64,000 bases of DNA from positions 64,001 to 128,000 of IMG/VR virus record IMGVR_UViG_3300031772_000003; one strand, given 5' to 3'. A program made the position numbers and the translations under genes. Shown one piece after another: positions 37,297 to 59,423 of this stretch (the stretch's first letter is position 1; each line of letters opens with the position of its first letter). The stretch comes from a virus. The notes below the pieces were generated by a model. It had not been told where the DNA came from and made no database searches. It saw only the letters and a program-made list of their open reading frames with translations.

Positions 37297-37313
37297 CACC
37301 CCTAGAATCAAGT
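37297..37313 (-). promoter_or_regulatory. Dispersed junction motif ACTTGATTCTAGGGGTG
   Basis: Exact consensus; 33 nt upstream of the tRNA-like RNA. Confidence 0.75.
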
Positions 37314-37801: not shown

Positions 37802-37829
37802 TGGCTCGCTCCTCGGGTTACCCTCCCCT

Positions 37830-37846
37830 CACCCCTAGAATCAGGT
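37830..37846 (-). promoter_or_regulatory. Dispersed junction motif, variant (ACCTGATTCTAGGGGTG)
   Basis: One mismatch to consensus; supplies the stop for the truncated gene 37841..37999. Confidence 0.7.
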
Positions 37847-37999
37847 GAGCTTGCCCAGGAAGCAGCGGGACCAGTCCCAGCCAAGACAGCCGAGGTCCAC
37901 CACGGGGCCTTTGTGCTCCCATATCCTGGGGTGAAACCTGTAGTAGGGCAGGGTACCGGAGCCCTGCTGCAACTTGGCTAGAATGTCCTGAGCCGTCAT
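37841..37999 (-). pseudogene. Probable truncated SAM-methyltransferase fragment (52 aa)
   Basis: ATGA-coupled to the GT gene; MTAQDIL...VVDLGCLGWDWSRCFLGKLT* ends just after SAM motif I. Confidence 0.5.
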
Positions 38000-38760: not shown

Positions 38761-38795
38761 AAAGCCACTCCATGAGAGCTACACCACCCACGGGG

Positions 38796-40273: not shown

Positions 40274-41820
40274 TTCGGTCTCCTTACTACAATCCCAAGC
40301 CAGTGTTTAGACTTGCCAGACACCAAGCGAATGCTCGTAACAAGCTCAAACTGATGCCTGCAGCACAGAGCCAAAATCGAGCCTCGGTCATAGACCCTCA
40401 AGTGATCGGCACTCATCACACCACCTTCCGGCACTGTGACCACAACTACACCACCGGGTCGGAGTACTCTCTTTGCCTCAGCCAGGGCTTTACCATCATC
40501 CATCACATGTTCCAAAACCTCGCCCATTAGAACTGTATCAAAGCTGTGGTCATCGAGTGGCAAAGACTCCGCCAAGGCAGGAAGAAGTTTGGCGTGGACA
40601 CCCACGCTCATCAAATTGAGCTTGGCTTGTACGAGAGCCTCCCGACACACATCTACTCCTACAAGCTGTTCCACGCCGGTAACACGAGACGCCACAGCTA
40701 GCCCCACCCCATTAGAGCAACCCACATCCAATACGGCGGGTCCGTGGATGTACTTCGACATCCAATCGAACCGTGCGCGCAAGTGGGGATAGTGCTTATC
40801 GCCCGGAGACGACCACCGCTGCCACACTGTGTCAAGACGGGTCGTGCCGTTATTTCGGTCCCTTACGAATGCAGCCTCGTCAGCAGTCAACACAGTAGTA
40901 ATGTCAGGGAAGATTTCTCTATACCTCACTCTATGTGTATGGTTAGCCATTGCCGGGAGTGCCTTATCCCAATAGGTCTCGAATGGGTGGGAGAGGAGAG
41001 ATTCGAGGTCAGTTAGGCTATCGTAGTGGATAACATACGGGTCGAGGTCGCTCAAGCCATTACCAATAAGGTTACAGTTCGTGATAACAGCCGCGCCACT
41101 GGCAAGATACTCCATCAGCTTCGCCGGAATGAAATCACCATAACCACTCTCCGTAGGGCACACCAGTGCAGCAGCTTTGTACAAGGCATCCCAATAGGAA
41201 TCTTGGTCAAGCACGTCATTTATCGGTGGTGTAAACCCAATAACATGCCCCATCTTGCGGTAGAGGTCAAGGCGCTTCTCATAAGCCCCTGTTCTGCTCC
41301 TATAGCCACCAACAAACCAAACGCCCGACCTGCCTGGGTAGCCGTTGACAATACGCTGCTCTGACACTGACCATCGAAGGCACGGCACCCCCTCCCATGA
41401 TGCTGCATTCTCAAGACGTTGATAGTATTTCTGCTCCGTACCCATCTTAGGACAATACTCCGCAGACCTACGATTCCATACAGGCTGCCTACAATAGAGC
41501 TTATCAAACTGCCGATACCATTTGTCATCCTTCCTATAGTTCCATGAGTCACACTCCACGAAAACTTTGACAGTTCCTCTAACTTGCCGAAGGTCTGGCA
41601 ACCATTTTGCATAACGACGGCGCACCGTCCCGTAGAGGTAGTGGGGCTGGAAGGTGTCAATAGCGCGGTAGAGAGCCGACAGCGAGAGGTCGTGAACAAA
41701 GCCGGGTCCCCATAGACCAACCTCGACATCGGGTCCAACCTCATACATCCAATCGCTGTGGGAGGCGGCATTGAAGTTGGCTAGAGATGCTTTAGGGTAC
41801 AGGAAAAGAACACGTACCAT
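40270..41820 (-). CDS. GT-B (CgeB-like) glycosyltransferase fused to a class I methyltransferase
   Basis: N-terminal KLMEYLASG...NHTH.VR; C-terminal VLDVGCSNG, FDTV..GEVLEHV, RVLRPGG. Confidence 0.82.
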   Translation of the reverse strand: MVRVLFLYPKASLANFNAASHSDWMYEVGPDVEVGLWGPGFVHDLSLSALYRAIDTFQPHYLYGTVRRRYAKWLPDLRQVRGTVKVFVECDSWNYRKDDKWYRQFDKLYCRQPVWNRRSAEYCPKMGTEQKYYQRLENAASWEGVPCLRWSVSEQRIVNGYPGRSGVWFVGGYRSRTGAYEKRLDLYRKMGHVIGFTPPINDVLDQDSYWDALYKAAALVCPTESGYGDFIPAKLMEYLASGAAVITNCNLIGNGLSDLDPYVIHYDSLTDLESLLSHPFETYWDKALPAMANHTHRVRYREIFPDITTVLTADEAAFVRDRNNGTTRLDTVWQRWSSPGDKHYPHLRARFDWMSKYIHGPAVLDVGCSNGVGLAVASRVTGVEQLVGVDVCREALVQAKLNLMSVGVHAKLLPALAESLPLDDHSFDTVLMGEVLEHVMDDGKALAEAKRVLRPGGVVVVTVPEGGVMSADHLRVYDRGSILALCCRHQFELVTSIRLVSGKSKHWLGIVVRRPK

Positions 41821-44219: not shown

Positions 44220-44985
44220 CCCAATACTCCGTTGTGAGCCAAGACTCACCCACGTTGATATAGTCGAAGACCGCCCGTGCCATCTCGTGGTCTACCTGCC
44301 CCACCCGCTTACTCTCAACCTGTATAGCAGTAAGAATGTCATCCAGTCCCCCCCACGGGATCGCGCTCGGCTGTCCTCCATTGTAAATCGACCTACGACC
44401 CATAAGCCCCAACTCCACCACGCTATTGGCGATCCCATCATGGGGCGTCAAGCGTATCCCCAAGAAGCACCGCTCGTAGATACCTCGAAGGGCAACGCGG
44501 TCAAACTGGTACGGACTCTCCACGACGTTGACGCCGAAGCCACACCGCTCCACAACGCGGTCAAGAAGGTCTTGGCGATAAAACTTGGGCTTGGTCTTAG
44601 GTGCGTAGGCGTAGATTTCTGAACCTAGCGGGGTCGGTGAGAAACCATTCATGTCCGACCCCACAATCGGAACGACCTTGCAGGGGACGTTAGCCTTTGC
44701 GAGATCGTCCTGTATAAATGAGGATATGGCAAGGTGCCTCACGTTAGGCTTGGTCATGACTTTCAATGCCGTGGGTGGGAACTTCATGATGTCGGAACCC
44801 CGCCATAGCACTATGGCTAGCCCTTTGTGCCTAGATAAGGCTTGGGCATCGTCAGGTGTGTACAGCCCATAGAAAACAACGGGGGCGGAGGGATCGGTGT
44901 AAGGACTCAAGCCATGCCGATCCACGAAGGGTCCAAATGACTTCTTCACGATCGCACTCATCCTACACTGACCGATCCTACTCAC
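44212..44985 (-). CDS. GT-B-like glycosyltransferase
   Basis: W.GSD, Y..CFLGIRLT.HDG.AN.V.ELGLMGR. Confidence 0.65.
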   Translation of the reverse strand: MSRIGQCRMSAIVKKSFGPFVDRHGLSPYTDPSAPVVFYGLYTPDDAQALSRHKGLAIVLWRGSDIMKFPPTALKVMTKPNVRHLAISSFIQDDLAKANVPCKVVPIVGSDMNGFSPTPLGSEIYAYAPKTKPKFYRQDLLDRVVERCGFGVNVVESPYQFDRVALRGIYERCFLGIRLTPHDGIANSVVELGLMGRRSIYNGGQPSAIPWGGLDDILTAIQVESKRVGQVDHEMARAVFDYINVGESWLTTEYWDA

Positions 44986-45686
44986 GCCTTGCCCCTCATG
45001 TATTCTAGCGACCTCTGCCGAATCAGCTTATCACACGCCTTTTGCTTCGCCCTACCCGACGTTGACATGCTACCAGGTCGTGGGTGCCGATACACGTAGG
45101 TCACCACGGGTACATGCTTAGTCGCACAGCCCGTCTCCCCAAGTAGGACGGCTATCTGATAGTCTACCGCTGAGGAAATCGAGGTATCGAGACCCCGGCT
45201 TTTGCGGTAAAAATCCAGGGACCAGAACTGCTGACACCCCGCTCCCCACCACCCACAGTTACAAATCGCGCTCCATAGGGTAGTACCAGGAGGGAGGGGT
45301 TTGCTCCACCCGTGCCTATCGGTTCCCATAAACTTCCAGGCCGTCCATACATAACCGACAGACGTATCTTGAAAGGGGGGTACACCCACGGACAAGCTAT
45401 TAGACATCAGGGTATCATCACTGCCCAAGAACGTCACCACGTCGCCTGTGGCAGCGTCCAGGGCAGCTTTGAGGGCGGCGGCACAACCGCCGTGGGGGAG
45501 CTTGAGCAGGGTAACAGGCTGGCCCGCTATGAGGCTTTCCACAACGTCGGCAGTATCATCCGTCGAGCCGTCATCGGCGATGATCAACTCCCACTGCTTA
45601 TGGGTCTGGGCGAACACAGAGCGGATCGCCTCAGCTATATAGGGGGCAGTGTTGTAACATGGAACCAACACGCTTACCACTTTCAT
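44982..45686 (-). CDS. GT2 family glycosyltransferase
   Basis: VSVLVPCYN..YI.EAI.SV..QT...WELII.DDGSTD, FL.SDD. Confidence 0.9.
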   Translation of the reverse strand: MKVVSVLVPCYNTAPYIAEAIRSVFAQTHKQWELIIADDGSTDDTADVVESLIAGQPVTLLKLPHGGCAAALKAALDAATGDVVTFLGSDDTLMSNSLSVGVPPFQDTSVGYVWTAWKFMGTDRHGWSKPLPPGTTLWSAICNCGWWGAGCQQFWSLDFYRKSRGLDTSISSAVDYQIAVLLGETGCATKHVPVVTYVYRHPRPGSMSTSGRAKQKACDKLIRQRSLEYMRGKA

Positions 45687-48600
45687 GCTCTCGCTCTGAT
45701 ATTCACAGGCTGCCATTCCCCTGATGGAAGCTGAATGCCGGTGACATGGACGGAACGGCCTTTGAGCAATCGAATCTCCTGCTCCTCCTCACCCAAGGAT
45801 GGTTGGCAGCGGGCGAACAGCGTCCCCTTCCAGTCAACACTCTTTGATGGAACCGACGCCCGGAGGACGACGCAGGGGCCCCCATGCCCCCAATGGCACT
45901 CCGCTTTGTCCTCCTCGTCAGCCCAGTAGACTCCAATCCCCCGTGTCCGGATGTGCTGCCACACCGTAGCGGGATCAACCGGGTCAACGTCGATGGCCCG
46001 GTACAGCACCAGGGGGTCGGACATCCCAGCAATGCCCTCAAGAGCATCGTCCAGAGCCCGCTCGATCTCTTCCCGAACCATCTTCTCCGCACGAGCATCC
46101 ACCTCCACATCCGTCGCGTCGTCCCCAAGATCCTCCCGGGCGAGGTCAGCATAATTGTTTATCTCGTCCACGGAGTCGTGCAGCACCGCTGCAACCATCT
46201 CCTCCCGCTCCTCGTCGGTCAGTTCAGGGGCGAGGCTATAGGTGCTGGGCTGGAATGACTCCGCGACCTGCTGCCCCTGGTCAACCACCCGTTTCACAAC
46301 GCCAGCCCGACGTACAGTAGGGGGTCGTCGCTTACTTGCTTGCCTTGCCATATCATCATTCACCCATGCAGGAGCTACGTCATAATCCTGCTCTCGCCAA
46401 ATATCCGCACGGTGGTTCCCATCATTGATCACGACACTACCATCCACCTCACGAGTAACTACGATAGGAGGGAAGCCCCTACCAAAACTCCGCTGAAGCT
46501 CATCCTCTGGGTAGGACTCAACCTCAGAGCGAGCCTGCAGCTCACGGGCGAGTAGTTCCACGTCGCTGTCATCATACCCATCATCGGGGTCCCACGGCAA
46601 GAAATCGCGCCAGTTATCAAACCCAGAGCGATGATATTGCGTCTCCCCCGCGGTCCACCTCTCCAGCATCTCCTCAGCCTGCTCCATAAAAACAGGGTCA
46701 AGCTCTCCCTCGCCCTTACGTAGGGCTTCTGCACCCTGCTTCTCCACACGCTGCGGCTTCAGGTCAGCTAGGTCAACCATAGCGGTATAGACAAAACGGT
46801 CTGGCTTAACACCCACGAATTGAGCCACCGTCTGCTGCGTCCACTTACCGTAATTGTCCGTAGCATCCCAATCATGCTCCGGCGCTTTTCCCTCGTAGTC
46901 ATCCACGGGCTGACCAAGAGGGGGCACCGCAGCTTCAAGCAGGCTCTCGGTTACTTGCTCCCCCTGCTCGACCAACTTCTGGATCTGGTCATACCCGTTC
47001 TCGACCACAACCTCAGCGACCGGGTGCTGGTCAATGTACCTTCGGGCATTCACCAGCTTGCCCGTGTGCTTCAACGCCCGCAACGGCTCACGCGACGTGA
47101 TCGCTCCCAACTGAATCATCTGTGTGGTTACGTCCGCGAGCTTCCCCTTGTCCTTACCTACCAACACCCTCCTTCGAACTTCCTCTCCTTCCACGTCCAC
47201 CTCATCCCCAACAAGGAAACCACTACGTTCCTGGGGGTTCTTGAGGATCACACGAAAGGTCTTGCCGTCTGGGGTCTTGGCAGTAACTTGCTCGAACGGG
47301 AAGGGAGCTAGATCAGGATGATCTATGCCTACTTGTTCCTGTATCCCGGACTCGTCCCGCTCGACCAGCTTCTGAATCTGCTCATGTGCGTTCTTCAACA
47401 GTGCGGCAAGTCCGAAGTGTTGGGGCTTGACCCGGTACATCTCCTCCCACGTCACCCACCTATGGCCCTCCGTCTCCCAACCATGTCCAGGCTCGAACTC
47501 CTCCGGGACGATGCCGAGGAAATTGGAGTACTGGAACCCCTCAGTAGTATAGACATAACTCGGCACTAGCTCCATCGAGCCCGTGTACCCCGTCTCCTCA
47601 ATGAACTCGCGTCGAGCCGCGGTCTCCGGTGCCTCGTCCTCGATGCGACCCCCCCAGATGCCCCAAGTGTGGGGCTCGTTGACCTCGGAGCTACGGTAGG
47701 CCAGCAGGAACCGGCCCGTGGAGGTGCAGAGGGGGAGGATGCCTGCACCTTGATCGCCCCAGAAATGGCGGCCAGCAGTATTCGCGTAGTAGGTGCCGTG
47801 GGGGGTAAGAGCTTCGATAAGGGCACCGGCATTGACACAGCGGTCCAGATAATCCACCGCGTCCTCCTGGGACAGGTAGCGATGGTGGTGGGTTATGTTA
47901 GAGTCCCACCACTCAAACTCCACCTCTGGGCAGTCATCAGGAGATTGGCCAGCCACAAGCTCCCGGAGGGTCTGGAGAGCGGCCACGGCAAATGGTGCTT
48001 TGCTGCTGCCTATCTGTACCTTGAACCCTGAACCATCGTCTCCGGGACGGATACGGATGCTCCCCGCATCCAGGGCAGCCTGGAAGCCATCCTTGCCATA
48101 CTTACGCTCAGCCCTAGCGACATGGTGTAGCCCACCACCCCAGGCATTGGTGCCGTGGTCAAACGAACCATCAGACCATACCCATGCACCATAGGGACCA
48201 ATCTCGTAGGGGCTGAGGCGGGCTTCCTGCACACTCTCCTCCTGCACCTGCCCCGCGATCTGAATCCACTGCCGCACCAGGTTCTTCATCTCCCACACAG
48301 TCATCGTCTCACCGGGAACCTCGGACTCAACACCGACCTCTGTAGTTAGCTCCACCGTAAAATGTGCGGAGGTGTGGGCAAGAAGGTTCAAGAGGGTGAG
48401 GTATGCAGCATTGGACGTAAGCCCCGCCATTGGGGGGGCACAACGCACGAACAAAGTAAGGTCCTCTAAATTGACAAGGATGCCCCCATGCTCAATACCC
48501 AAGCGGATGCCGGCGGCGTCATCCCGATCATCATCCGGGACAGCGGGCGCATACTTGTCATAAGCCGCCTTTGCATGGAAATAGCCGGTCTCAATCTCCC

Positions 48601-51600
48601 CATCACCCCATATCCACGTCCCATTCTCAGCCACGTCCTCAATGCTCGCGTAGGCTTCGGAGAGAGATTCCACCACACTACTAGCCTTTATCCGTAGCTC
48701 ACGGAGCCTGTCCTCAAGGGGGGTCCAATCTACCGCCTGACCAGCGATCACCCGTATATCCACGTCAGACTCCCCATATGGCCTCTCAAACTGGCCTGTC
48801 TCCTGATTTAGCTTTGCACCACCACCGGCAGGTTGGCGATGATTAGATAGTCTAATCTCTAGCCCATCCTCTCCATCAAACAACTCAAATTGTAGATACC
48901 ATGAGTCTGCGAAATCATGACAGTTATCTTGCCCGCCTAAGTGAATCAAACCCACAGACTCACACCGCTGAATCACCTCATCTGCTGCCAGAAGCAGGGC
49001 ATCTCTATATGCAAGAGCCGCTTGGTAAGTCTCCTCCGCCTCCTGCTTCTTTGCAGCATCCTCTTCGTCTTGCTCGCTATCACGTAATGCAGCATCATAG
49101 AGACTTGCCTCCCACGCCTCGTCCGAATCGTAGTCTCGCCTTGGGAAGGCATCCAGGAGATCGGGTAAGTACTGCCTTAGCTCATCCGGCCAGTCATCCC
49201 CTATAACCTCACACACCACCCTGTCCAACTGCCCCACGTCATCCACGACTTTGCTCTGCTTGAACCAGGCACGGAACTCCGGGGTGTCCGTGGCGAGCCT
49301 GGGGTCGGTAGCCTCCGTCAGGGCTTCTGCCGTCCAACCGGGTTGAAATGGGATACCAGCCGCGGGCGCTATGCGGGGGAAGTCCATGTAGAAGTCATCG
49401 GGCAACCCCGCCCGCTTCGCATGCCTCTTGGCCAGCGCCAGGAGCTTAGCGGCCTTGCGCTCACACTCCTCAGCATCCTTTGGGTAGCCCAGCCGCTTCC
49501 ACTCCTCCACCTCATCCTGTTCCTTGATCGCCATCAAGTAGTAGTGCGTCGCAAGAGAGTAGGACGGAATCCTGTAAGCCCCCTCACTCAGCGCCATGTC
49601 CAGCGAGCCCACGGTGCGGGCATCCACCACGAACCGCCCTTTGCCCATCAAGAACTGCACCGCCAGTTCATACTGAGCCTTCCAGTCAGCCCGCTGCCGA
49701 TCCTGCCAATGGGTGAGAAAGTCCCGGTCAGTCCGCTCGATTGCGGAGTAACCCGGCATGCTCCTGCCCTGGAAGTAGGAGAGGTCCTGCCACTGCTCCC
49801 CCAATTTGATCTCAGTCTTCTTGCCATCTTTCCCACTGAACGTCACGGTGCCAATGGTGAACTCTTTGCCTGTCAAGGAGCCGTCACCCACGTATCGTGT
49901 GATAGCTTCTGGCTTCAGGTAGGCAACCGTTGCGTGGGCGTGGTACTCGGGGTGCGTGTCGGTACACTTGAGGTTATCCGAGACGAGCTTGTTGAGCCGG
50001 TCCAAGCCGGCACTCTCGATGTCGTACTTCAACACAGCGGCGTTATCCGAGGATTCGCTAGGAGGGAAGGATGAAAGCTTGCCAAACTTGATCGTGACCC
50101 GCTCCTCGCCCTTGAGGGGCTTCTTCACTTCCTCCGGGTCGGAGGTGTGCAGCCCGTACTTTATCGTAATGTGGGCCTCTGTCTCCCGACCATCCCCCAT
50201 CAAGTCTTCGTCCTTGACCCGCATACCCTGCGCGAGTATGCCCTCCTTAGCCCCACCAATGAGGTCGGCTTGCAGGCAACCATAATCGTGGGTCTCCTCA
50301 TTTAGAGCCGCGTCCAACGCACCGATGGTGCGAGCCTCAAACGTAACGATCTTCTTGGGATTAAATGCGTCCTTTAAGTCGCGCAGCAACGCCTCGGGAA
50401 TGGGCCGATAGCGCTGTGCCTCCGGGGGCACTACAGAGACCCAACCAGTCCGCGCATCGTACCTGCCTTTGTAGAGTTTACCTGCTACTCCTGGACCAAA
50501 CTCTATGTCGTGTGATCCAGGAAGGTTGATCCCCTCGTGATCCCTAACATTGATTACCAAACCCCCCGGCCCAGTCCACATCCAGATGGTATGGATAAGA
50601 CTTTCTTCATCTTCGTCCTCTCCCCCCTGATCGTGCCCGATCTGAAAATAGAGTTCAGCGGCTTGATCCGCAGGGTCCTGATCCTCATAGGGATCAAAAT
50701 TGGGGTAAATAGTAGATCCCCGCTCGGTGGCTTTTGCAACTTCCCGCTTCCACGATACCGGCCTCTTGGCCTCACTCAGCATGCGGTCTAGCCCCCCTAC
50801 TGTGGCCTCAGCGGGCACCCCTCGGGGCTCGGGCCTGGCCCGACTTGGGTCATAAGCGGCGGGTCCCGCTGTAGACAAGCGCTGGAACTCCTGCTTCGCC
50901 AGTTCCATGATCTGGTCTACCAGAGCCTTCGCCTCCGGATCGCCCTCCACGGACTGGTACAGGACCCGGTACTTCCGGGTATCCTCCCACCGGGCCTCCG
51001 GCCCCTTCTCCCGCACCAGTTCCCAGTACTCAGCCGCCAGTTCCGTGGCATACGCCCGCTGCTCCCCCGGCCATGAGAAGTAGTAGCCGGCATTCCTGGA
51101 GCCGGCGTAGGTCGTGGGCCAGTCCCCTAAGTCCGTCCGTGCCTTGTCTTCGATGGCGTGGTAGGTCTCGTGCGTCATGATGCCAGCAAACTCTTCCACG
51201 AATCTCCTATCGGACACCCAAAGATAAATTGCGCCCTCACCGGGCGAGTACATGCCCCCACTTCCAGCCCCGGAATCAGCCCCCGGCGTATACGTGAGTC
51301 CGCCCCCATGCGTCTTGATGTGGACCCGCATCCCAAACAGGTCCCAGCGAAACTTGTCCAGCACCTTCGGGTCTTTGGGCGTAGGAAGCCCCGATGCTTC
51401 CAAGTCCTGGATTATGATGTCGATGGTCCGCTGGCCGATGACCTCACGTAGAGTAACGGTATAGTCCACACCTACCGGAATCTTCCCATTGAGTTCCTGC
51501 GCCCATCTGCGGGCCTTCTGATAGATCAATGCTGGGACCAAAGATTCGACCAGCAAGTCCAGTTCGCCCACGGTGTGGGCATCAGCGGACATCGCATCCT

Positions 51601-54600
51601 CAATCACAGGGGCCTCGCCTGCCGGGGTGACGGAGTCCAGGGCGATCTCCTGAATGCCGGCCCTACCGGGCTGCTTGTCTGGGTGCCACGAGCCTGTCCG
51701 CCTAACGCGCCACACCCGCGTCGGCGTCGCAGAGGCCAAACTCGCCAAGGGCTTGCCCTTGAGGACCCGGAGGAGCTCTGCCCTGTCATAACGGGTGAGG
51801 GCCCGGAGGATTTGCTTGCCGGCCATCGGCACCGCGGGGTAATCCCCACCAAGTGCGAGGCGGAGAACCCTGGGGGTAACGTGCCGCTTAGCAAAGTCGA
51901 GGAGCCAATCAAGGCTCTTGAGAGTCTCGGCAGGGGTGTAGCCCATGTCGGGATGTACCCGCACGAGCTCGGCATAATGCTCCGGCCTCTCTTGAACCAT
52001 CTCGATCCACAGGAGAAGGCCCCCCACATCATCCTCATCAGGGTCCACGTCGGTCAAGGCGGACCCTGGCACCTCGAAGACATAACCCCATGGCTCCTCC
52101 TCCACAGGTATGCCGGGGTGGTTAGCGTAGGAAACGGCCTCCCCAAAAGACGGAGTCAGGTAGACCGCTTCCCGCCGAGCCTGTTGCCATCCCCGTTCCC
52201 TGCTCCCCCCTAACGGCTTGAGGCCCTCCCGGACAATGGCATCCGCTGCGGCTTGAGTGGGGCACCCGTGGTAGTAGGCCGTGGCCCGCATCGGCTCATC
52301 GGGGGTTGGGGCCTCCATGAGGGATTCAACGAGGTGGGCCAAGCTGCCGATGGACTCCTCAACACCCACGTCATATTCCTCATCATTCAGCTTTGCCCCA
52401 TAGTAGCCAGGCTTCTCGTAATACTGGTGGGTCCAGTAGTCCAGCATGTCCTCTGGTACTGTGTCGGCCCGTTGCCACCGACCGCCGATGAGAATATCGT
52501 ACTGGCTGGGCTCAAGCACTCGTTCCTCATAGTCGCCAGTGTCCACATATCTATCATTTGGGAATGCCCCACACTGTTGCAGCCTATCGTCCAAGAAATG
52601 AGCGGGGATACGGACGGCGACCCTACTCCGCGCGAGGGACGCATCATCGAGCCAATTAGCCTCGGTAGTAACATAGAACCTGTAGGTTCCCTCCTCATCG
52701 GGGTCCTGATCCGCCCACCTGTTCTCCTCCCGGGGGATGTCCACAAAAGAGCCGGGCATATCACCGGGATGGGCGGTGTAGAGGCCCTGCCGCAACAACG
52801 CTCGCATATCACCTTTGGGATGATAGCGGTAGTAATAGCTTCCCCTGTGCTGCTGATGTGCAACCGTGTCCTCGGCCAAGGACTCCTCAGCCCTACCCAC
52901 GAGCAAGGAGGACATGGGGACTCGTTCCCAGCCGTCTTGTGGGTAAAGGTTCTGCTCCGGGCCCTGGATCAGGTCCTTCCGCCACATCCTATCCGGCCTC
53001 AACACCCCGTGGTGAGCAATGACAATAGGGCTCAGGGCAATAAGCTCCTGCTTCTGCTCCGGTGTCATCAGGGTAAGCAGACACTTCGTGTTCGCTGCCA
53101 AGGGGTTCTCCGGGTTATCCTGCTCAGCCATCTGCCACAACCAGTCAGGGCATGTCTGCCCGTACTGCCCATCCCACGAAAGAATATAGGACACCTCGGA
53201 GTCATCAGGCTCAACATCCATGAGAGCGGAGCCGGACACCCCAAACACGTATCCATACCGCTCGTCACTATTCGAGGCATAGTCCGCGGCGACCCCAAAA
53301 TCAGGTGTCAAGTACACCCTACCACGAGTTGGGCAGGCTGCGGGTCCACCCATCTTATCCCACGGTTGACTATACGATCTATCGGGTTGAATCCCAGACC
53401 TCGCAATCGCCCGTGCCTTCCGGGTCGTGGGGCAGCCGTGGTAGTACATCTTCTCGGCCTGCTCCTGTGACGGAGGAGGGGATTCCTGAAGAGCCTCTGA
53501 GAGCAGGGAGGACAAGGGGTACGCTTTCCAACCAGACTGATCCCAATAGTGCCCCTCACCAGGATGACGCAAGCGCCAGACCCGTGTAGGCACCACAGGC
53601 CCCAGATGGGCCACGGTCAATGGCCTCTCCCGCATCACCTCCTGCTTTTGCTCCGGGGTCATTCGCCGGAGGATTTCACGGGGATCGGCCATGTGGGGGC
53701 TACCAGGATCGACCGCAGCAGCTATATCATGGAGCCAATCGGGGGTATCATCACCCCACAGGAGGCTGCCCACCCTATCCTCATCGGGCTCCACGTCCTG
53801 CAGGGCCGAACCGGGCACCTCGAAGATGTAGCCATCAGGCGGGTAGTCATCGGGGATTCGCGGGTCATGCCCGGACGTAAGAGCATATTCCACAGCAACC
53901 CCAAAATCAGGTGTGAGGTACACGCGCCCCTGCATCGGCTCCACCCGCGGAGACCAATGACGACTCGGTAACTGATCCGGTCTGATCCCAAATCGAGCGA
54001 TCTCATTGGCCCTTCTTGCGCTGGAACAACCATGGTAATAGGTCTGCTGGGTCTGTGTCTCAGAAGGGGGCGGGGCCTCGATGAGCATGGCCCGGTCAAG
54101 GGACCCAATAGATTCGCCTACCAACTCAAACAATAACTCCCCACCCGTTCCTCTTACAGGTGCCCCCTGCATCTCAGGGAACCGCTGCTCGATTGCCTCT
54201 ACAGCATGATGCACCTTCAGTTTCGCCCCACGATCCCACCTCTCCCACATACCATAGAACTCAATTCCCCACTCCGCCTCCACAGCATCAGGTGGGTAGA
54301 AGCAACCCCGCTGAGATATGATTTCCTGCTGATCCACATCACACAGCAGCCCACCTCCCTCAGTGTAGCCCAAGACATCCCCACGCTTGTGTCCCGCCCT
54401 CCGAAGCAACCAATCCAGGAGTATTGGCACATGATCTTCCACTGTGGTCATCGTGACCCTGTAGGTGTCCTCATCGCTACCCTCCTCATCATACTCCTCA
54501 TCATCTTCTATCCCCCACTCCCGCGGCTCCCCTTTGACAGACACCCGCAACAATGTTAGCAGGGCTTTACTGCCGTCCATTGTCAAGAGCCCAGTCTCGC

Positions 54601-54955
54601 GTGACCATACAAAGTAGACCTCGCCCAGCTTGCGGGAGAGCAGGGCTTCCATGGTCGGTCGCTGCCGGTAGCGCCGCTCCACCTCCGTAGCCGCAGCGTG
54701 CGCCCGCTCGTAGTCCCATCCCTGAAGCATCAGAGATCGCTCATAAGTTTCGTGGACCAGCACAGCGGGCATCTCAACGGGCTGGACGCCGTTGTCGATC
54801 CAGATTTCGTCTTGGGGGATGAAGGCGTAGCGGCAGCCATTCCCGCCCTGAGAGAAATCCAAGTCGTAGGTATCGCGGACGGCCCTGCCGTCCACGATCC
54901 AGACTTTGAGGCCCTGTGTCGTGCCCCAGTAATGGATGTAGGGGGAGGGCAGCAT
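45683..54955 (-). CDS. Giant multidomain (polyvalent) protein, ~3090 aa: ART-like x4-5, zincin, 2H phosphoesterase (Acb1-like), Nudix, ParB/Srx and unknown domains
   Basis: YYHGC..VYLTP x3; HETYH; HIT..HAT; GGRIEDE..ETAARREFIEETG; PPIVV..DGNHR; LYR..EEEQE; repeated linkers. Start moved to ATG 54955 (GAGG RBS). Confidence 0.85.
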   Translation of the reverse strand: MLPSPYIHYWGTTQGLKVWIVDGRAVRDTYDLDFSQGGNGCRYAFIPQDEIWIDNGVQPVEMPAVLVHETYERSLMLQGWDYERAHAAATEVERRYRQRPTMEALLSRKLGEVYFVWSRETGLLTMDGSKALLTLLRVSVKGEPREWGIEDDEEYDEEGSDEDTYRVTMTTVEDHVPILLDWLLRRAGHKRGDVLGYTEGGGLLCDVDQQEIISQRGCFYPPDAVEAEWGIEFYGMWERWDRGAKLKVHHAVEAIEQRFPEMQGAPVRGTGGELLFELVGESIGSLDRAMLIEAPPPSETQTQQTYYHGCSSARRANEIARFGIRPDQLPSRHWSPRVEPMQGRVYLTPDFGVAVEYALTSGHDPRIPDDYPPDGYIFEVPGSALQDVEPDEDRVGSLLWGDDTPDWLHDIAAAVDPGSPHMADPREILRRMTPEQKQEVMRERPLTVAHLGPVVPTRVWRLRHPGEGHYWDQSGWKAYPLSSLLSEALQESPPPSQEQAEKMYYHGCPTTRKARAIARSGIQPDRSYSQPWDKMGGPAACPTRGRVYLTPDFGVAADYASNSDERYGYVFGVSGSALMDVEPDDSEVSYILSWDGQYGQTCPDWLWQMAEQDNPENPLAANTKCLLTLMTPEQKQELIALSPIVIAHHGVLRPDRMWRKDLIQGPEQNLYPQDGWERVPMSSLLVGRAEESLAEDTVAHQQHRGSYYYRYHPKGDMRALLRQGLYTAHPGDMPGSFVDIPREENRWADQDPDEEGTYRFYVTTEANWLDDASLARSRVAVRIPAHFLDDRLQQCGAFPNDRYVDTGDYEERVLEPSQYDILIGGRWQRADTVPEDMLDYWTHQYYEKPGYYGAKLNDEEYDVGVEESIGSLAHLVESLMEAPTPDEPMRATAYYHGCPTQAAADAIVREGLKPLGGSRERGWQQARREAVYLTPSFGEAVSYANHPGIPVEEEPWGYVFEVPGSALTDVDPDEDDVGGLLLWIEMVQERPEHYAELVRVHPDMGYTPAETLKSLDWLLDFAKRHVTPRVLRLALGGDYPAVPMAGKQILRALTRYDRAELLRVLKGKPLASLASATPTRVWRVRRTGSWHPDKQPGRAGIQEIALDSVTPAGEAPVIEDAMSADAHTVGELDLLVESLVPALIYQKARRWAQELNGKIPVGVDYTVTLREVIGQRTIDIIIQDLEASGLPTPKDPKVLDKFRWDLFGMRVHIKTHGGGLTYTPGADSGAGSGGMYSPGEGAIYLWVSDRRFVEEFAGIMTHETYHAIEDKARTDLGDWPTTYAGSRNAGYYFSWPGEQRAYATELAAEYWELVREKGPEARWEDTRKYRVLYQSVEGDPEAKALVDQIMELAKQEFQRLSTAGPAAYDPSRARPEPRGVPAEATVGGLDRMLSEAKRPVSWKREVAKATERGSTIYPNFDPYEDQDPADQAAELYFQIGHDQGGEDEDEESLIHTIWMWTGPGGLVINVRDHEGINLPGSHDIEFGPGVAGKLYKGRYDARTGWVSVVPPEAQRYRPIPEALLRDLKDAFNPKKIVTFEARTIGALDAALNEETHDYGCLQADLIGGAKEGILAQGMRVKDEDLMGDGRETEAHITIKYGLHTSDPEEVKKPLKGEERVTIKFGKLSSFPPSESSDNAAVLKYDIESAGLDRLNKLVSDNLKCTDTHPEYHAHATVAYLKPEAITRYVGDGSLTGKEFTIGTVTFSGKDGKKTEIKLGEQWQDLSYFQGRSMPGYSAIERTDRDFLTHWQDRQRADWKAQYELAVQFLMGKGRFVVDARTVGSLDMALSEGAYRIPSYSLATHYYLMAIKEQDEVEEWKRLGYPKDAEECERKAAKLLALAKRHAKRAGLPDDFYMDFPRIAPAAGIPFQPGWTAEALTEATDPRLATDTPEFRAWFKQSKVVDDVGQLDRVVCEVIGDDWPDELRQYLPDLLDAFPRRDYDSDEAWEASLYDAALRDSEQDEEDAAKKQEAEETYQAALAYRDALLLAADEVIQRCESVGLIHLGGQDNCHDFADSWYLQFELFDGEDGLEIRLSNHRQPAGGGAKLNQETGQFERPYGESDVDIRVIAGQAVDWTPLEDRLRELRIKASSVVESLSEAYASIEDVAENGTWIWGDGEIETGYFHAKAAYDKYAPAVPDDDRDDAAGIRLGIEHGGILVNLEDLTLFVRCAPPMAGLTSNAAYLTLLNLLAHTSAHFTVELTTEVGVESEVPGETMTVWEMKNLVRQWIQIAGQVQEESVQEARLSPYEIGPYGAWVWSDGSFDHGTNAWGGGLHHVARAERKYGKDGFQAALDAGSIRIRPGDDGSGFKVQIGSSKAPFAVAALQTLRELVAGQSPDDCPEVEFEWWDSNITHHHRYLSQEDAVDYLDRCVNAGALIEALTPHGTYYANTAGRHFWGDQGAGILPLCTSTGRFLLAYRSSEVNEPHTWGIWGGRIEDEAPETAARREFIEETGYTGSMELVPSYVYTTEGFQYSNFLGIVPEEFEPGHGWETEGHRWVTWEEMYRVKPQHFGLAALLKNAHEQIQKLVERDESGIQEQVGIDHPDLAPFPFEQVTAKTPDGKTFRVILKNPQERSGFLVGDEVDVEGEEVRRRVLVGKDKGKLADVTTQMIQLGAITSREPLRALKHTGKLVNARRYIDQHPVAEVVVENGYDQIQKLVEQGEQVTESLLEAAVPPLGQPVDDYEGKAPEHDWDATDNYGKWTQQTVAQFVGVKPDRFVYTAMVDLADLKPQRVEKQGAEALRKGEGELDPVFMEQAEEMLERWTAGETQYHRSGFDNWRDFLPWDPDDGYDDSDVELLARELQARSEVESYPEDELQRSFGRGFPPIVVTREVDGSVVINDGNHRADIWREQDYDVAPAWVNDDMARQASKRRPPTVRRAGVVKRVVDQGQQVAESFQPSTYSLAPELTDEEREEMVAAVLHDSVDEINNYADLAREDLGDDATDVEVDARAEKMVREEIERALDDALEGIAGMSDPLVLYRAIDVDPVDPATVWQHIRTRGIGVYWADEEDKAECHWGHGGPCVVLRASVPSKSVDWKGTLFARCQPSLGEEEQEIRLLKGRSVHVTGIQLPSGEWQPVNIRARA

Positions 54956-54965
54956 GTCGTTGCCC

Positions 54966-55343
54966 TCAATTAGGTGGGCCACTACGCATCTGCGTAGCAA
55001 TGAGCAACCGAAGTGATTCTATTTCCTTTGTCTGACTCTTGATCGCGTCCTTAATCTCTTTGAGGCTTTCATGAACCACCGTAGCTATGACCTCTGCTGC
55101 GACGGCCTTATGTTCTGCTACGGTCAAGCGCGCACTCACTTGTGACGACACGGCCCATGTAAAGGCGTAGGCCCCGCAAGGAAGAACGATGAGGAAGCCG
55201 AGCGCGGTGAGGAACGCCCATAAAGGCGTCCTACCCTTGACGCAAGCGGTGCGGTGCTGCTCACAAGTCTCGGTTGTCACAGGCGTAGGCATCATGGCCC
55301 CCCCCCCTTCTCTAATGTAGCCCGCTCGTGCTGGCTGTGGCAA
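54966..55343 (-). CDS. Membrane protein with coiled coil
   Basis: One TM segment followed by a heptad tail. Confidence 0.55.
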   Translation of the reverse strand: MPQPARAGYIREGGGAMMPTPVTTETCEQHRTACVKGRTPLWAFLTALGFLIVLPCGAYAFTWAVSSQVSARLTVAEHKAVAAEVIATVVHESLKEIKDAIKSQTKEIESLRLLIATQMRSGPPN

Positions 55344-55425: not shown

Positions 55426-55776
55426 TCAAATGACCGGAGACTGCCACACATGTCCTGAATCAGCCTCGGGGTCGAGCAACGCTACCATGAGGTCGCGCGC
55501 CGCCGCCCCACCCGATCCAATGATGCGGAGGACCTTGGCCGAGGTGACCTTCTCCACGCGCAGATCGGTCCCACCCCCATAGGCACCGAGGTTAAACGTG
55601 GTCACGAGATCGGTCCACGTTGAGCCATCCACGGAGCCCTGAATCTTGAGTGCGAGGGTGCCGGTGGTGAGGTTCCACAGGACGAGACAACGCGACGAGG
55701 GGTTGGCGGAGTGGATATTCAAGACGGTGCCGGAGGCCGCGGGCACGGGGAGGATGTCGAAGCTGACGCCGATCAT
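55426..55776 (-). CDS. Small beta-rich protein, possibly structural
   Basis: LKIQGSVDGSTWTDL pattern. Confidence 0.55.
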   Translation of the reverse strand: MIGVSFDILPVPAASGTVLNIHSANPSSRCLVLWNLTTGTLALKIQGSVDGSTWTDLVTTFNLGAYGGGTDLRVEKVTSAKVLRIIGSGGAAARDLMVALLDPEADSGHVWQSPVI

Positions 55777-58070
55777 CGGGGTCTCCTCTCCAGACGCTCC
55801 ATGAGAACGCCCTCACGCCACCGCTGGGAGGATTCCAGGATGAGACGAACCGCCGCAGCGGGGTTACGGAGGACCGTGCTGTTGAGGTAATTTCGAGCCC
55901 GAGCCAAGCGCTCAGGAGTCAAGTTCCAGAGACGTTGGGCTTTGGCATCCCACTCACAGGACCCGGGCGCGTCGTCCTCAAGTCCCGCGGGGCCAAGTCG
56001 CATTATGTTCTCCGGCACAGCCACGGGACCAATACGGTCGATGCCGACCCACTGGGCCTCACCGGTCTCAAGCTCCACGAGGCACTTCAGCCTACGGGCG
56101 TCCACAACGACGCCTTCGAGAGGGCTGCCGTCCTCCATGATGACGAGGACGGGCATGCGGGGGGTGAGACCCTCGCGCGGTAAATCATCCACGAAATGCT
56201 CGGCGTCGCCCTTCGAGACGCCCTGCCCACCCTGGCCCCCCTCCAAGGGGTCACAGGGGGCCGCGAGGTCGTGGCCGGGGGCCTTGATGTCGAGCACCTG
56301 AAGCACGGTCTGGATCGCCCCGGGGGCGTAGTGAATCGTGACCGTGGGCCTGCCAGGATCATTGTCGCACCTGATTCCGTGGCCCTCAAGCTCCGCGATC
56401 AGGGCGGCACGGGCCGCCAGAGGGACGGTAACGGCATGTGACTTGCTGCCTCCCTCGGGATCGTTAGTAGCAGGCACGGGCTTGGGAGGAGGAACGGACA
56501 TCGGGTCCACGGCCTCCTTAACAGCCTCGCCCCGTGAACCACGCGCCCAATTTCGCTGCCCACACCGCAAGCATGTACGCGGCGTGAACATTCCCTCTCC
56601 CTCTGGGTCCCACAAAAATGCTCGTCTGCACTTCTCACACTGAAGCCGCATGAGCCCACGCGCTTCGGCACCGGGCCATATTGTCCCCCGCTCCCCCTGC
56701 GCTACGACCTTTTCACTTACCCTCTCCTCAGCCAGCAACTTGTCCACATCCGCGAGCAGGCCCTCTCCGCCCTCCCATCCCATCACGTCCCGTCCCGTAA
56801 AGTAGCCTCTGGGATTCGATGGAATAGGCTCCTCGGGTTCCTCCTCATCATCTTCGTCTTGAAGTTCACCCTCGGGTTCCTCACCCCCCACACCCGGCGG
56901 CTCGGCAACGCTCAGGTACTCATCGGGCAGGCTCGTGATGTCCTCCAAGTGGCCCCACCAATCCTCCGGGAGCGTCGAGGGCCTGCCGTCCCAGTCATCT
57001 GGAGCCTCTACCACACCAGCAGCGACAGCCAGCGCCGCTTGGTCCCAGACAGAATCGACATAGAGCGTCGATCCATCCTCAAAGTAGACCTCAATGGCCC
57101 CACCCGTCCCCGGTAGGGTCCAGACCTCGCAGGGGACGTGGCCGGGAGGCAGATCACTGGCCTCCTCCTCGTCCCTGCCTACAGTGAGAGACGCGAAATG
57201 GGGGTCACCCGCGGCGACCTCGGCCAAATAGCGGTCCACCTCCTCCTCAACAGGAATCTCGCCCTTCAACTCCACATCCTTGCCACCACGCTTGGGCCAG
57301 CCACCCTTCCCCTTGGGCTTCTTACCCTTCTTGCCCTTGCCACGGAGCCACGGCGGCAGGCCCTTGCCTCTTTTCTTCGGGGTGGGCTCCTCCTCATCAT
57401 CCTCACCGCGGTCCATGGGACCCTTGCCCTTGAGCAGCTTGGCAATCGCGTCGGAGTCCTTGCCCTTGGGCTTATCCTTGGGGCGAACGTCTTTACCCCC
57501 TGGCTTCGGCTTCAGCGGAGGTTTACCCCCCATACCACCAGACCCCTGCAACTTGTCTTTGGGCAGTTCCGTCCCATCCTCTTCGTCCTCTGGCTCCTCC
57601 TTGCCCTTGGCCCACTTAGTCTTGAGAGCGGCGGGCATGGGCGGGCCGGGCCGTTTCTTACGACGTTCCTCGATGGACTCTATGATGGGAGCCGCTGCAA
57701 GTTGGTCCTCCACGGTCGTATCCTCAATAGACGAAGCAGGGTCAGCAGGGGGCTCGTCCCCCCGCAGATCAATCTCCGTGAGAGCATCGGCAGGGTCCGC
57801 ATCCCCATCCACGGCGGCGGGAGGGGACGGAGCAAATGCCTCCACGATCTTGGGAAAGGGACGGGGCGCGGGAACAGGAGCAGGAATCCCGCCCAGCATC
57901 CCAAGCGTGCCTTCATCCAGGCCAAGTTCCCCAACGGGAGCAACGGACTCCACGATGGATTCACCGCCACTTGGGCCCATCATCTCCAAGAGGCCCGCCT
58001 GGTCATCGGGAGCAGGCTCGGGCGGGGTCGGTCCTGGCATAGGGGGGAGGGGTGGCATATCAACCATCAA
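55773..58070 (-). CDS. Acidic/Pro-rich low-complexity protein with zinc ribbon and SH3-like segment (possible head internal protein)
   Basis: Lys/Gly and Glu tracts; CEKC..CLRC; many L/I/V-x-E motifs. Confidence 0.6.
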   Translation of the reverse strand: MMVDMPPLPPMPGPTPPEPAPDDQAGLLEMMGPSGGESIVESVAPVGELGLDEGTLGMLGGIPAPVPAPRPFPKIVEAFAPSPPAAVDGDADPADALTEIDLRGDEPPADPASSIEDTTVEDQLAAAPIIESIEERRKKRPGPPMPAALKTKWAKGKEEPEDEEDGTELPKDKLQGSGGMGGKPPLKPKPGGKDVRPKDKPKGKDSDAIAKLLKGKGPMDRGEDDEEEPTPKKRGKGLPPWLRGKGKKGKKPKGKGGWPKRGGKDVELKGEIPVEEEVDRYLAEVAAGDPHFASLTVGRDEEEASDLPPGHVPCEVWTLPGTGGAIEVYFEDGSTLYVDSVWDQAALAVAAGVVEAPDDWDGRPSTLPEDWWGHLEDITSLPDEYLSVAEPPGVGGEEPEGELQDEDDEEEPEEPIPSNPRGYFTGRDVMGWEGGEGLLADVDKLLAEERVSEKVVAQGERGTIWPGAEARGLMRLQCEKCRRAFLWDPEGEGMFTPRTCLRCGQRNWARGSRGEAVKEAVDPMSVPPPKPVPATNDPEGGSKSHAVTVPLAARAALIAELEGHGIRCDNDPGRPTVTIHYAPGAIQTVLQVLDIKAPGHDLAAPCDPLEGGQGGQGVSKGDAEHFVDDLPREGLTPRMPVLVIMEDGSPLEGVVVDARRLKCLVELETGEAQWVGIDRIGPVAVPENIMRLGPAGLEDDAPGSCEWDAKAQRLWNLTPERLARARNYLNSTVLRNPAAAVRLILESSQRWREGVLMERLERRPR

Positions 58071-58151
58071 ATAAACTCCTGCACGTATTGGCAGAGCACG
58101 ACGACAGCTACAAGGTATTCTACGGGGCAGGGGCAGGCCGCGTTTCCCCTA

Positions 58152-59423
58152 CTACGGCTCGGGAGCGGCGACAAGGGATGCCCACCGGATGATGTAGTCA
58201 GCGATGCCGTTGAGGATGCTCACCGTCCCATCGTTCCTAATGAAGTGATAGACCCCCTCCGCCAGCACCCCCATGGAGACCCTGGGGAGGTTGCAGTGGG
58301 CACGGAAGCTCGGGGGCAGATCGACCTCGACCAGGCATAGCTCATCCAGAGGGAGTTGCAGGCTATAGCGGCGGACCCCCATCGCTATCCCCGGGCCCCC
58401 CTTGCGCCGGTTGGGGAGCAATACGTAGGTGGGTTCCTCCTCCAAGTCCCCCTCCACCAAAGCGGGCAGCGTAGCCCCAAAGCGCACATCTATCGGGGCG
58501 ACACCCGCCGTGATTGCGAAGCCGCGCCGCTTGGTCTTCGAGCGCGAGGGGATCATGCCGCCCACGACTTGGCTGGGGTCCATGAATACATGAAACCGCT
58601 TCCAATCCGGCTTTTCGATAGGCTCACCACTACCCGTCGCGTACACCATCCCGGACCCCTCACCATCGGTCCAGGTGAAGCTCTTTTGGAAATACTGCGC
58701 CGCGATCTCCAGGGCGTCCGCAAACCCGATCCCGATCACGGTGAACCCCGGCTGCTCGTAGACTTTCGGGGGCGTTGCGTCTGTGTCCGTGTAGGTGCCG
58801 CGGGTAGGAACGAAGCTGAAGCCCCTGTTCCACAGCACCCAGGCTAACTGGGCGTTCCGGGGATCATTCTGGGCATTGGTATCCTCATCAATATAGGCAG
58901 TGAGCACCGCCATCGGGGTGTGCTTGAAGTGCTGGAGGAATCGGTACAGGCTCGCCTCAAAAACAGAGGCTTTCCCCATTATGCGGCCCACAGCCCGTTC
59001 GACTAACGGGTCCACAGCACTCTCCTTCGATTCCCTCGTGGATTCATTCATTGCGTCCCGATTCTTCCACCTCGTGTTGAGGTCCAGGACCGCCGCTGCT
59101 GTCACCGCATCGATGCGGCGGGTATCCGTGGGCCATGTCTTGGGTGTATAACGAACCGTGGCCCCACCAATCAACGAGGTGACATCGGCCCTGCCACCCT
59201 GCGTCATCTTACCGGCCCGGCCCAATTCGCTGCGTGGTGGCGGGAAGTAGAGATAGTCACCGACCCGGACATCCGCAAGTGCGACACGGGGCAGGGCCTG
59301 TAGGGCCGCCCGCATCTGCTTCGCCTCAGCCCGGAGATCGAGGTGTTGGGTCTCGGAGCGCAGACGCTCGACATTGAGCCCATGCCCCTCTGGAGGATGC
59401 AGCGACGGTCTCCACGTCTTCAC
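58152..59423 (-). CDS. Phage protein with DUF3293-like central domain
   Basis: EASL.R..QH...AVLTAY...N..RN..L...L...G......G.Y...E..F.V.....A..Y.Q.S. Confidence 0.55.
   Translation of the reverse strand: MKTWRPSLHPPEGHGLNVERLRSETQHLDLRAEAKQMRAALQALPRVALADVRVGDYLYFPPPRSELGRAGKMTQGGRADVTSLIGGATVRYTPKTWPTDTRRIDAVTAAAVLDLNTRWKNRDAMNESTRESKESAVDPLVERAVGRIMGKASVFEASLYRFLQHFKHTPMAVLTAYIDEDTNAQNDPRNAQLAWVLWNRGFSFVPTRGTYTDTDATPPKVYEQPGFTVIGIGFADALEIAAQYFQKSFTWTDGEGSGMVYATGSGEPIEKPDWKRFHVFMDPSQVVGGMIPSRSKTKRRGFAITAGVAPIDVRFGATLPALVEGDLEEEPTYVLLPNRRKGGPGIAMGVRRYSLQLPLDELCLVEVDLPPSFRAHCNLPRVSMGVLAEGVYHFIRNDGTVSILNGIADYIIRWASLVAAPEP

Follow-up and report, generated by a model that had tools for sequence, protein, structure and literature searches.

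We analysed a 64,000-nucleotide stretch of viral DNA (hereafter 'the window'; bases 64001-128000 of the 163,716-bp IMG/VR virus record IMGVR_UViG_3300031772_000003, CheckV completeness 92%) which harbors a giant open reading frame (ORF) coding for a chain of about 17 small modules joined by conserved linkers. This ORF A spans window positions 45683..55000 on the minus strand and comprises 3105 open codons when read from a TTG at 55000; from the ATG at 54955 it yields a protein of 3090 residues (45683..54955; P0001/P0002), equal in length to the public protein entry P0002. A single protein of ~3090 residues had been proposed here in a preliminary description of the window, made from the sequence letters without database searches, and one continuous minus-strand ORF is indeed found. 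Residue positions of ORF A given below follow the 3105-residue numbering that starts at the upstream TTG. A second giant, ORF B, is located outside the window at genome positions 140539-152748 (-; L006:39-12248), ~2.4 kb downstream of the portal gene, and comprises 4069 codons; its true start is probably later than called, the first ~95 codons being non-coding in look. The virus is a myovirus whose structural genes are of the T4 type, namely a tail sheath (phrog_23 match, 1e-83), a baseplate wedge gene, a portal (phrog_213 match, 9e-25) and a major capsid protein which matches Pfam Gp23 (1e-44) and can be aligned to the solved structures of T4 gp23. Judged by the capsid protein, its closest cultured relatives are Listeria phage LIS04 and Bacillus phage SP-15, at only ~32% identity. 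What the linkers of the two giants look like, and which protease may cut them, is the subject of the present text.

Seven copies of a long linker following the pattern [TSD][IV]GxL...E had been listed for ORF A, and every one of them is present where it had been placed. All are read on the minus strand. Linker 1 (54077..54112, residues 297-308) has the form S-I-G-S-L-D-R...L-I-E and scores 33.4 bits with the position-specific scoring matrix (PSSM) described below; linker 2 (52313..52354, residues 883-896) has a tail that includes the short linker E-S-L-M-E-A; linker 3 (51545..51574, residues 1143-1152) reads T-V-G-E-L-D...L-V-E-S-L and scores 23.8 bits; linker 4 (50771..50803, residues 1400-1410) is preceded by E-A-T and is the copy most similar to the capsid maturation junction; linker 5 (50297..50329, residues 1558-1568) adjoins with its L-N-E the start of a 2H domain; linker 6 (49583..49615, residues 1796-1806) reads T-V-G-S-L-D...L-S-E; and linker 7 (49208..49240, residues 1921-1931) reads D-V-G-Q-L-D-R...V-C-E. 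The regular expression [TSD][IV]G.L is matched eight times in ORF A, compared with a mean of 0.405 and a maximum of 5 in 2000 shuffles; the eighth match, at residue 991, falls inside an ADP-ribosyltransferase (ART)-like domain and was therefore not counted as a linker. ORF B contributes ~11 further copies in the sharper form E-S-I-G-G-L-D-R-M-L-S-E, and the overall consensus is E-S-[IV]-G-x-L-D-R-x-[LV]-x-E.

A PSSM built from 14 copies of both ORFs places these copies at 24-42 bits, whereas 20 shuffled proteomes yield 16.6 bits at most, which was taken as the ceiling of chance; four weaker copies were also found in ORF B. Run over the rest of the genome, as the preliminary description had envisaged, the profile exceeds that ceiling in ORFs A and B only and in none of the other 190 of the 192 ORFs. 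(A 316-residue protein of the baseplate/tail-fibre cluster, encoded at genome positions 37072-38022 (-), exhibits a linker-like stretch, E-S-I-G-T-L...I-V-E-S-L-E, at residues 21-36, which at 10 bits scores at chance level.) Synonymous codons agree among the long-linker copies in 36% of cases versus 35% expected from codon usage. Since synonymous sites are thus random among the copies, the linker is conserved at the protein level, with selection acting on the peptide and not on the DNA, and a DNA-level origin of the repeats, be it recent duplication or a recombination signal, is ruled out.

Within the alignment of the 14 copies, the Gly and the Leu of G-x-L are the sole invariant residues, while at least 90% of copies retain a Glu six residues past the Leu. 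An [LV]-x-E tripeptide stands at fixed spacing from G-x-L in 13 of the 14, the looser ending [LIV]-x-E likewise in 13 of 14, and G-x-L is followed by Asp in 10 of the 14. That only Gly and Leu are invariant would suit linkers that are never cut, serving instead as amphipathic helical spacers or as docking peptides which tether the intact giant to the capsid interior, the scaffold or another partner. The similarity of the core [ST][IV]G[SG]L to encapsulin targeting peptides (GSLxIGSLK, LTVGSLRR, TVGSLIQ; PMC10960027, PMC7925596) points the same way, as do the precedent of the N4 virion RNA polymerase, which enters the particle unprocessed, and the uncleaved-looking Pro-rich spacers or the I-D-x-A-I-G-P helix present in other polyvalent giants. 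The conservation of a Glu at fixed spacing from G-x-L, however, is a feature that such spacers leave unaccounted for, and an intact chain of 340-440 kDa would be hard to thread through a tail channel. Taken together with the module edges and the capsid junction considered further below, these points make uncut linkers, in our opinion, unlikely.

Several of the ~17 modules of ORF A (all on the minus strand) are without family assignment. The interval 51581..54076 holds three paralogous Y-Y-H-G-C modules (approximately residues 309-500, 507-705 and 897-1140) and an unassigned module (residues 712-880). A profile of eight paralogues of the former type matches Tpt1 (E 0.0028), cholix toxin (0.0038) and PARP10 (0.2), all below family cut-offs, and this weak but consistent signal hints that the three units may be ARTs of the H-Y-E type, a clade defined by a Y-H-G motif, a second motif containing Tyr and a catalytic Glu in an ART fold. 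The interval is followed by a zincin-like module (50810..51544, residues 1153-1397) with H-E-T-Y-H at residue 1277, which is recognized by motif without a family match and is paralogous to two modules of ORF B; by a 2H phosphoesterase module (49796..50296, residues 1569-1735) located between L-N-E and L-G-E, with a phrog_755 match of 1.3e-6 and 2191 homologues at E<=1e-10; by two W-x-W-x-D-G units; by a Nudix hydrolase module (47363..47779, residues 2408-2546; Pfam match 2.5e-13), past A-L-I-E and ahead of L-V-E / I-Q-E; and by a ParB/Srx-type module (46259..46930) with D-G-N-H-R at residue 2860, again recognized by motif, which ends in V-A-E-S-F. Hence, among the enzymes named in the preliminary description, Nudix and 2H are supported by profiles and ART weakly so (E ~0.003), whereas the ParB/Srx and metallopeptidase assignments stand on the motifs DGNHR and HETYH.

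The edges of the 2H module could be mapped with some precision. An exhaustive phmmer search with ORF A residues 1140-2330 returned 3747 relatives, the best 150 of which all match the 2H module alone, and a word-indexed search with the whole of ORF A matched only three giants, which likewise share the 2H module alone and are devoid of the long linker. For the 151 relatives formed by those 150 and one giant from the word-indexed search (P0003), homology begins at residues 1567-1570 and ends at residues 1733-1736, that is, just past the L-N-E of linker 5 (Glu 1568) and at the L-G-E ending at residue 1735; free-standing 2H homologues of 175-250 residues span exactly this stretch. Consistently, an AlphaFold2 model of residues 1385-1830, calculated with an alignment of 66 2H homologues, exhibits the 2H domain at residues 1574-1734 with predicted local distance difference test (pLDDT) scores of 85-98, and represents linkers 4, 5 and 6 as lone helices of 9-12 residues with pLDDT 38-61 in the midst of disorder. 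Alignments of paralogous segments split at the linkers start, in five cases, at the first residue after the presumed cut. Nudix homologues from jumbo phages start 12 residues past A-L-I-E and stop right before L-V-E / I-Q-E. As the preliminary description had expected, the linkers tested are thus located outside of folded domains, and module edges falling exactly at L-x-E are not what is anticipated for spacers that remain uncut.

A shorter linker, E-S-[LIV]-x-E-[A/S/D], marks further boundaries. The preliminary description had taken shorter L/V/I-x-E motifs as marks of the other boundaries. In the plain form [LIV]xE these occur in ORF A at chance level, but the tighter form ES[LIVM]xE[ASDE] is enriched: ORF A contains five copies, ORF B one, and a 765-residue protein encoded just upstream of ORF A one (at residue 37), whereas the other ~44,000 residues contain no further copy (expectation for the 45,126 residues outside both giants, 0.42). 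The related form [LIVM]xES[LIVMF] occurs seven times in ORF A, compared with 0.7 expected (about 1), and eight times in ORF B. Only four of the ten short motifs originally listed (ESLAED, ESLSEA, ESVQEA and ESLLEA) belong to the enriched class, so that the list was overstated. These four, again on the minus strand, are E-S-L-A-E-D (52868..52885, residues 706-711), which follows the second ART-like module; E-S-L-S-E-A (48653..48670, residues 2111-2116); E-S-V-Q-E-A (48221..48238, residues 2255-2260), which separates the two W-x-W-x-D-G modules; and E-S-L-L-E-A (46931..46948, residues 2685-2690). In a second AlphaFold model, which is of low confidence, pLDDT dips at each of the three short linkers covered, e.g., at residues 2105-2125 for E-S-L-S-E-A and 2248-2260 for E-S-V-Q-E-A. 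A third repeated junction, Q-I-Q-K-L-V-E, is present in two copies near the C-terminus of ORF A. Every short linker terminates in [LIV]-x-E, and in this phage their Glu is fixed, which argues once more against uncut spacers, while the residue just before it varies. The long linker can then be read as a short linker with G-x-L-D-R-x placed between E-S-[IV] and L-x-E.

The two linker types differ in their distribution. A back-translated E-S-I-G-x-L-D-R-x-L-x-E pattern gave 2 single matches in IMG/VR and 110 single matches in JGI metagenomes, with no multi-copy giant protein among them, and outside of this phage the long linker has so far not been seen. No close IMG/VR relatives were found via ORF A residues 290-900 or via the portal, and no homologue of ORF A is detectable in five related IMG/VR phages with capsid proteins 29-39% identical; the closest of these five (G001) has no ORF above 950 residues. 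The short linker, in contrast, recurs elsewhere. The complete 156-kb phage genome IMGVR_UViG_3300037478_000708 (G004; capsid protein ~32% identical) encodes at positions 25113-39808 (+; L226) two adjacent giants of 2314 and 2619 residues, which contain 3 and 9 copies, respectively (12 in all), of E-S-[VLI]-[DE]-E-[AD]. The first of these giants carries a zeta-toxin/AAA_33 kinase domain; an S77-like protease is encoded beside the capsid gene; and the capsid junction, L-D-E|T, is paralleled by linkers ending in [VL]-D-E|A. Five giants from other metagenomes that are homologous to the larger one (P0258-P0262) contain 2-5 strict copies each, compared with 0.05 expected, and in their alignment the motif is located where conserved blocks stop and unrelated modules or gaps start; at one such junction identity drops from 70% upstream to 0% downstream. 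The closest homologue of the 2H module (P0008, 52% identical) likewise has three strict short linkers and six E-S-[LI] sites in total, whereas most other giants with a 2H module carry Pro-rich spacers in place of these linkers. As a separate observation, a few of the other 2H-sharing giants exhibit a recurrent helix, [DA]-x-[LIV]-[LVW]-x-x-[IV]-D-x-A-[IL]-[GA]-P, between Pro/Ala-rich spacers, with 3-5 copies per protein in P0033, P0100 and P0073 and 2 copies in P0103. Giants punctuated by motifs may thus use several junction 'dialects'.

These distributions also bear on which protease might cut. ORF B comprises five Y-H-G-type ART-like modules (with Pfam Arr-ms, PTS_2-RNA (Tpt1) and PARP matches of 5e-4 to 2e-3, below cut-offs), three W-x-W-x-D/N-G units, two HExxH modules and a JAMM-like H-x-H-x8-S-x2-D motif. 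Together with the single HExxH module of ORF A, the latter modules are conceivable cutting enzymes, and Iyer et al. (2017) have in fact proposed that polyvalent proteins have their domains freed by embedded metallopeptidases. A further candidate is a 291-residue caspase-domain protein encoded in the window at 61230-62105 (-; Pfam Peptidase_C14, 8e-10), in an ORF that overlaps longer plus-strand ORFs; the Asp that follows G-x-L in most long linkers would suit such an enzyme, and the invariant G-x-L suggests a recognition sequence longer than a T4-type protease requires. The linkers might then be cut, inside the capsid or after injection, by an embedded zincin or JAMM-like module or by the C14 enzyme. 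The short linkers, however, vary where a caspase needs Asp and instead fix the next Glu, and the related phages G001 and G004 yielded no homologue of the C14 ORF. The latter, with its 12 short linkers, has an S77-like protease while its giants yield no peptidase domain with Pfam. Caspase-type cutting after the conserved Asp was accordingly rejected as a general rule. As the linker ending [LV]-x-E|[AS] is, moreover, that of the invariant capsid junction, i.e., of the head protease's own substrate, cutting by any of these other enzymes appears to us rather improbable.

The preliminary description regarded its proposal as refuted should a T4-type head protease be missing. Such a protease is present, so that this objection falls. 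The protein (P0006; 534 residues) is encoded at genome positions 57335-58939, ~5 kb ahead of the window and directly upstream of the capsid gene. Its first ~215 residues match phrog_207 'head maturation protease' (6e-19) and, more weakly, S80 (7e-3) and Pfam S77 (3e-4; 20.7 bits, under the 27-bit cut-off). BLASTP aligns it with T4 gp21 (E 6e-9; 26% identity), and both catalytic residues are retained, His85 within L-E-H-P and Ser140 within S-S-R-G; genes at the same position in related contigs have Peptidase_S77 (PF03420) matches in the precomputed Pfam table. The remainder of the protein is rich in Ala, Glu, Lys and Pro, scaffold-like, and contains ten [LIVM]-x-E sites, which indicates a protease-scaffold fusion.

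The capsid protein provides a view of what this protease reads. When 49 capsid proteins of this clade are aligned, Glu75 does not vary; it belongs to L-[D/E/K]-E|[S/A]-T and stands seven residues before the conserved arm V-G-S-F-E-K-F-V-F-P (the N-arm). The propeptide has two additional conserved L-x-E motifs, and the corresponding junction of T4 gp23 is L-T-E|A. The head protease of this clade therefore probably reads L-x-E, as that of T4 does. The linkers of the giants share this ending, [LV]-x-E|[A/S], which is difficult to reconcile with linkers that are not cut. The agreement extends beyond the tripeptide: across the proteome, the hexamer [IV]G[SGA][LF][DE][KR] is found only in six linkers and at capsid residue 82, seven residues past Glu75 (chance expectation for the rest of the proteome, 0.17), and linker 4 opens with E-A-T as the capsid junction does. 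Because the hexamer is confined in this manner, the long linker appears to copy the capsid protein's own maturation junction; it looks like a compressed version of that junction with a second L-x-E site behind it.

It is then tempting to speculate about the G-x-L half of the long linker, for which a protease that recognizes P3-P1 has no need and which, for this reason, might be a docking or targeting element. Given the resemblance of its core to the targeting peptides of encapsulins (TVGSL, IGSL), a loading role is conceivable: [ST]-[IV]-G-x-L might act as a repeated cargo-loading peptide that binds the lumen of the gp23-type (HK97-fold) procapsid in encapsulin-like fashion, by mimicking the N-arm junction of the capsid protein (E|A-T...V-G-S-F-E-K), with multivalent anchoring of the giant and the L-x-E cut as its release. 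The encapsulin peptides have a nearly identical core and likewise bind the lumen of an HK97-fold shell. They are, however, terminal and single, and their core is followed by Lys or Arg, whereas the long linker is internal and repeated, continues with Asp-Arg, is predicted to be helical, and would meet the gp23-type capsid of a phage. These differences set the long linker apart from the encapsulin cargo-loading peptides as a class, and we consider the loading scenario to be of low probability.

Based on the evidence collected so far, we favor, as moderately probable, the view that ORFs A and B encode polyvalent effector polyproteins which are packaged, cut at their linkers by the head protease and then ejected. 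Both giants are strings of small, mostly enzymatic modules joined by linkers which, in the short and in the long form, end in [L/I/V]-x-E, the cutting signal of T4-type gp21 (MEROPS S77). The polyproteins would be built into the prohead core; the gp21-like protease would cut during head maturation, presumably just past the linker Glu; some 15-20 separate proteins of 12-25 kDa would thereby be released per chain; and these would leave the capsid with the DNA and might target nucleic acids, nucleotide signals and proteins of the host, in takeover or in counter-defence.

Several points weigh against this view. The phage is uncultured, and packaging and cleavage are inferred from sequence. Relatives with the long linker, which would show it to be conserved across species, were not found in IMG/VR or JGI metagenomes. 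The invariant Gly and Leu, at about P9 and P7, are not accounted for by T4-type specificity alone; plain [LIV]xE is not enriched in ORF A (59 observed, 52 +/- 6 expected); the zincin-like modules in both giants and the JAMM-like motif in ORF B offer embedded alternatives for cutting; and the second AlphaFold model (residues 2095-2700, 7-row alignment) has a mean pLDDT of just 48. Furthermore, no T4-like N-terminal capsid targeting sequence ending in L-x-E was found within the first 80 residues of ORF A (counting from the ATG, [LIVM]-x-E is first encountered at residue 82, within the first module), such that the linker, should it act as the tag, would be an internal one; and gene A sits outside the head-gene cluster.

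The last two points lend themselves to yet another explanation, namely that the giants are cytoplasmic multi-enzymes made in infection and not virion cargo, with the linker being a lineage-specific connector without a role in processing. Gene A is indeed surrounded by glycosyltransferase, methyltransferase and unknown genes, and not by head genes, and no capsid targeting sequence is recognized. Yet gene B is located close to the portal gene, proteases of the T4 gp21 type work inside proheads, such that the match to the capsid junction would have to be a coincidence, and the repertoire of ART, ParB-like, zincin, Nudix and 2H modules is that of polyvalent proteins, for which co-delivery with the DNA has been inferred (Iyer et al. 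2017). A purely cytoplasmic role thus appears improbable.

Some features of the genome surrounding ORF A may be added. A GT2 glycosyltransferase is encoded directly downstream of it (window 44982-45716, -). Two small ORFs upstream of ORF A lies the gene of the 765-residue protein mentioned above (55773..58070, -), which belongs to no known family and has a Pro-rich N-terminal region of ~80 residues containing L-L-E, E-S-I-V-E-S (residues 37-42) and I-V-E|A-F-A-P. The short linker and I-V-E|A-F-A-P make this protein a candidate for a further substrate of the head protease, and its N-terminal region looks like a propeptide with head-protease sites. Further recognized genes of the window, all on the minus strand, code for an RNA ligase/tail-fibre attachment catalyst (855-2156, phrog_562), a DNA methyltransferase (4207-5820, phrog_67), an RNA ligase (24242-25300, phrog_968) and a methyltransferase-domain protein (40270-41820). 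Elsewhere in the genome, the product of 13044-14336 (-) matches phrog_1211 (adenylosuccinate synthetase of the PurZ type, 6e-74), and the phage DNA may contain 2-aminoadenine in place of adenine. The portal gene and its neighbor, outside the window at genome positions 155129-157279 and 157279-159663 (-), have peculiarities of their own: (i) an insert in the portal (approximately residues 353-510) matches ribonucleotide reductase regions and phrog_28563, (ii) the 794-residue protein beside the portal matches Pfam Intein_splicing (1e-11), and (iii) a radical SAM/HNH protein (genome 23684-26272) has phrog_28563 in common with the portal insert. Inteins are likely in head and packaging genes.

The view favored here joins two things that are known, the polyvalent proteins described by Iyer, Burroughs, Anand, de Souza and Aravind in 2017 (PMC5512222) and the processing of internal proteins in T4. 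Polyvalent proteins, of phages and conjugative elements, are giants which string together unrelated conflict-type domains such as ART, ParB-like and zincin peptidase domains; it is presumed that they accompany the DNA and are freed proteolytically, for which embedded peptidases were suggested. ORF A shares with them the large number (2-15 or more) of unrelated domains and the encoding by a portal-bearing phage, and its 2H module is common to thousands of such giants, including one that carries the domain LPD1 (PF18796), while, of the hallmark domains of the class (MuF, MPTase-PolyVal, the LPD families, ART and DdrB-ParB), no Pfam matches to MuF, MPTase-PolyVal or LPD were found in ORFs A and B, and the ART-like, zincin-like and ParB-like modules are recognized by weak profile matches or by motifs. 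What distinguishes ORF A is its conserved linker of 6-16 residues, which matches both the head-protease site and the capsid junction; the word 'linker' does not occur in PMC5512222.

In T4, the internal proteins IPI-III and Alt carry capsid targeting sequences that are removed by gp21, which cuts after [L/I]-x-E (PMC9026906, PMC5694885). The protease is of the same family as in the present phage, and the packaged, processed and ejected cargo likewise includes an ADP-ribosyltransferase. In T4, however, every cargo protein has a small gene of its own and a single N-terminal tag of 10-20 residues, whereas here two genes unite ~17 and 20 modules, and the element of tag and site recurs inside the chains. 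In phiKZ, 201phi2-1 and SPN3US, many head-internal proteins are cut by the gp21-related gp175/gp245 after x-x-Glu, often at several sites each (PMC5694885, PMC9026906); the motifs of the phiKZ type are S/A/G-x-E and propeptides are removed, whereas a regular domain-linker-domain polyprotein is not described there, and the word 'polyprotein' is absent from PMC5694885. Polyproteins encoded by RNA viruses of eukaryotes offer a likeness without homology, in that one product is divided by a viral protease at conserved junctions into many functional proteins; in the present case the protease is encoded separately and is proposed to act within the assembling capsid of a DNA phage. In the searchable literature, we found no description of a polyprotein with regular junctions of the prohead-protease type, nor of such a linker.

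If the linkers are cut, two genes would deliver some 35-40 separate small enzymes, and the linker would constitute a readable 'cleavage code' from which the mature products could be predicted from sequence alone. Release by the head protease, and not by embedded peptidases, would then provide a concrete mechanism for polyvalent proteins, and the T4 style of cargo packaging would be widened from single tagged proteins to polyproteins. If the encapsulin-like scenario held true, the G-x-L element would represent a phage counterpart, and perhaps an ancestor, of encapsulin cargo loading, as part of a two-part tag. The element of 12-16 residues might also turn out to be useful as a load-and-release tag for foreign proteins in T4-type capsids. 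Finally, since the short form ES[LIV]xE[A/D] recurs in the giants of other uncultured phages with this type of capsid and protease, the short-linker rule may serve to annotate a whole class of giant phage genes that have so far been opaque.

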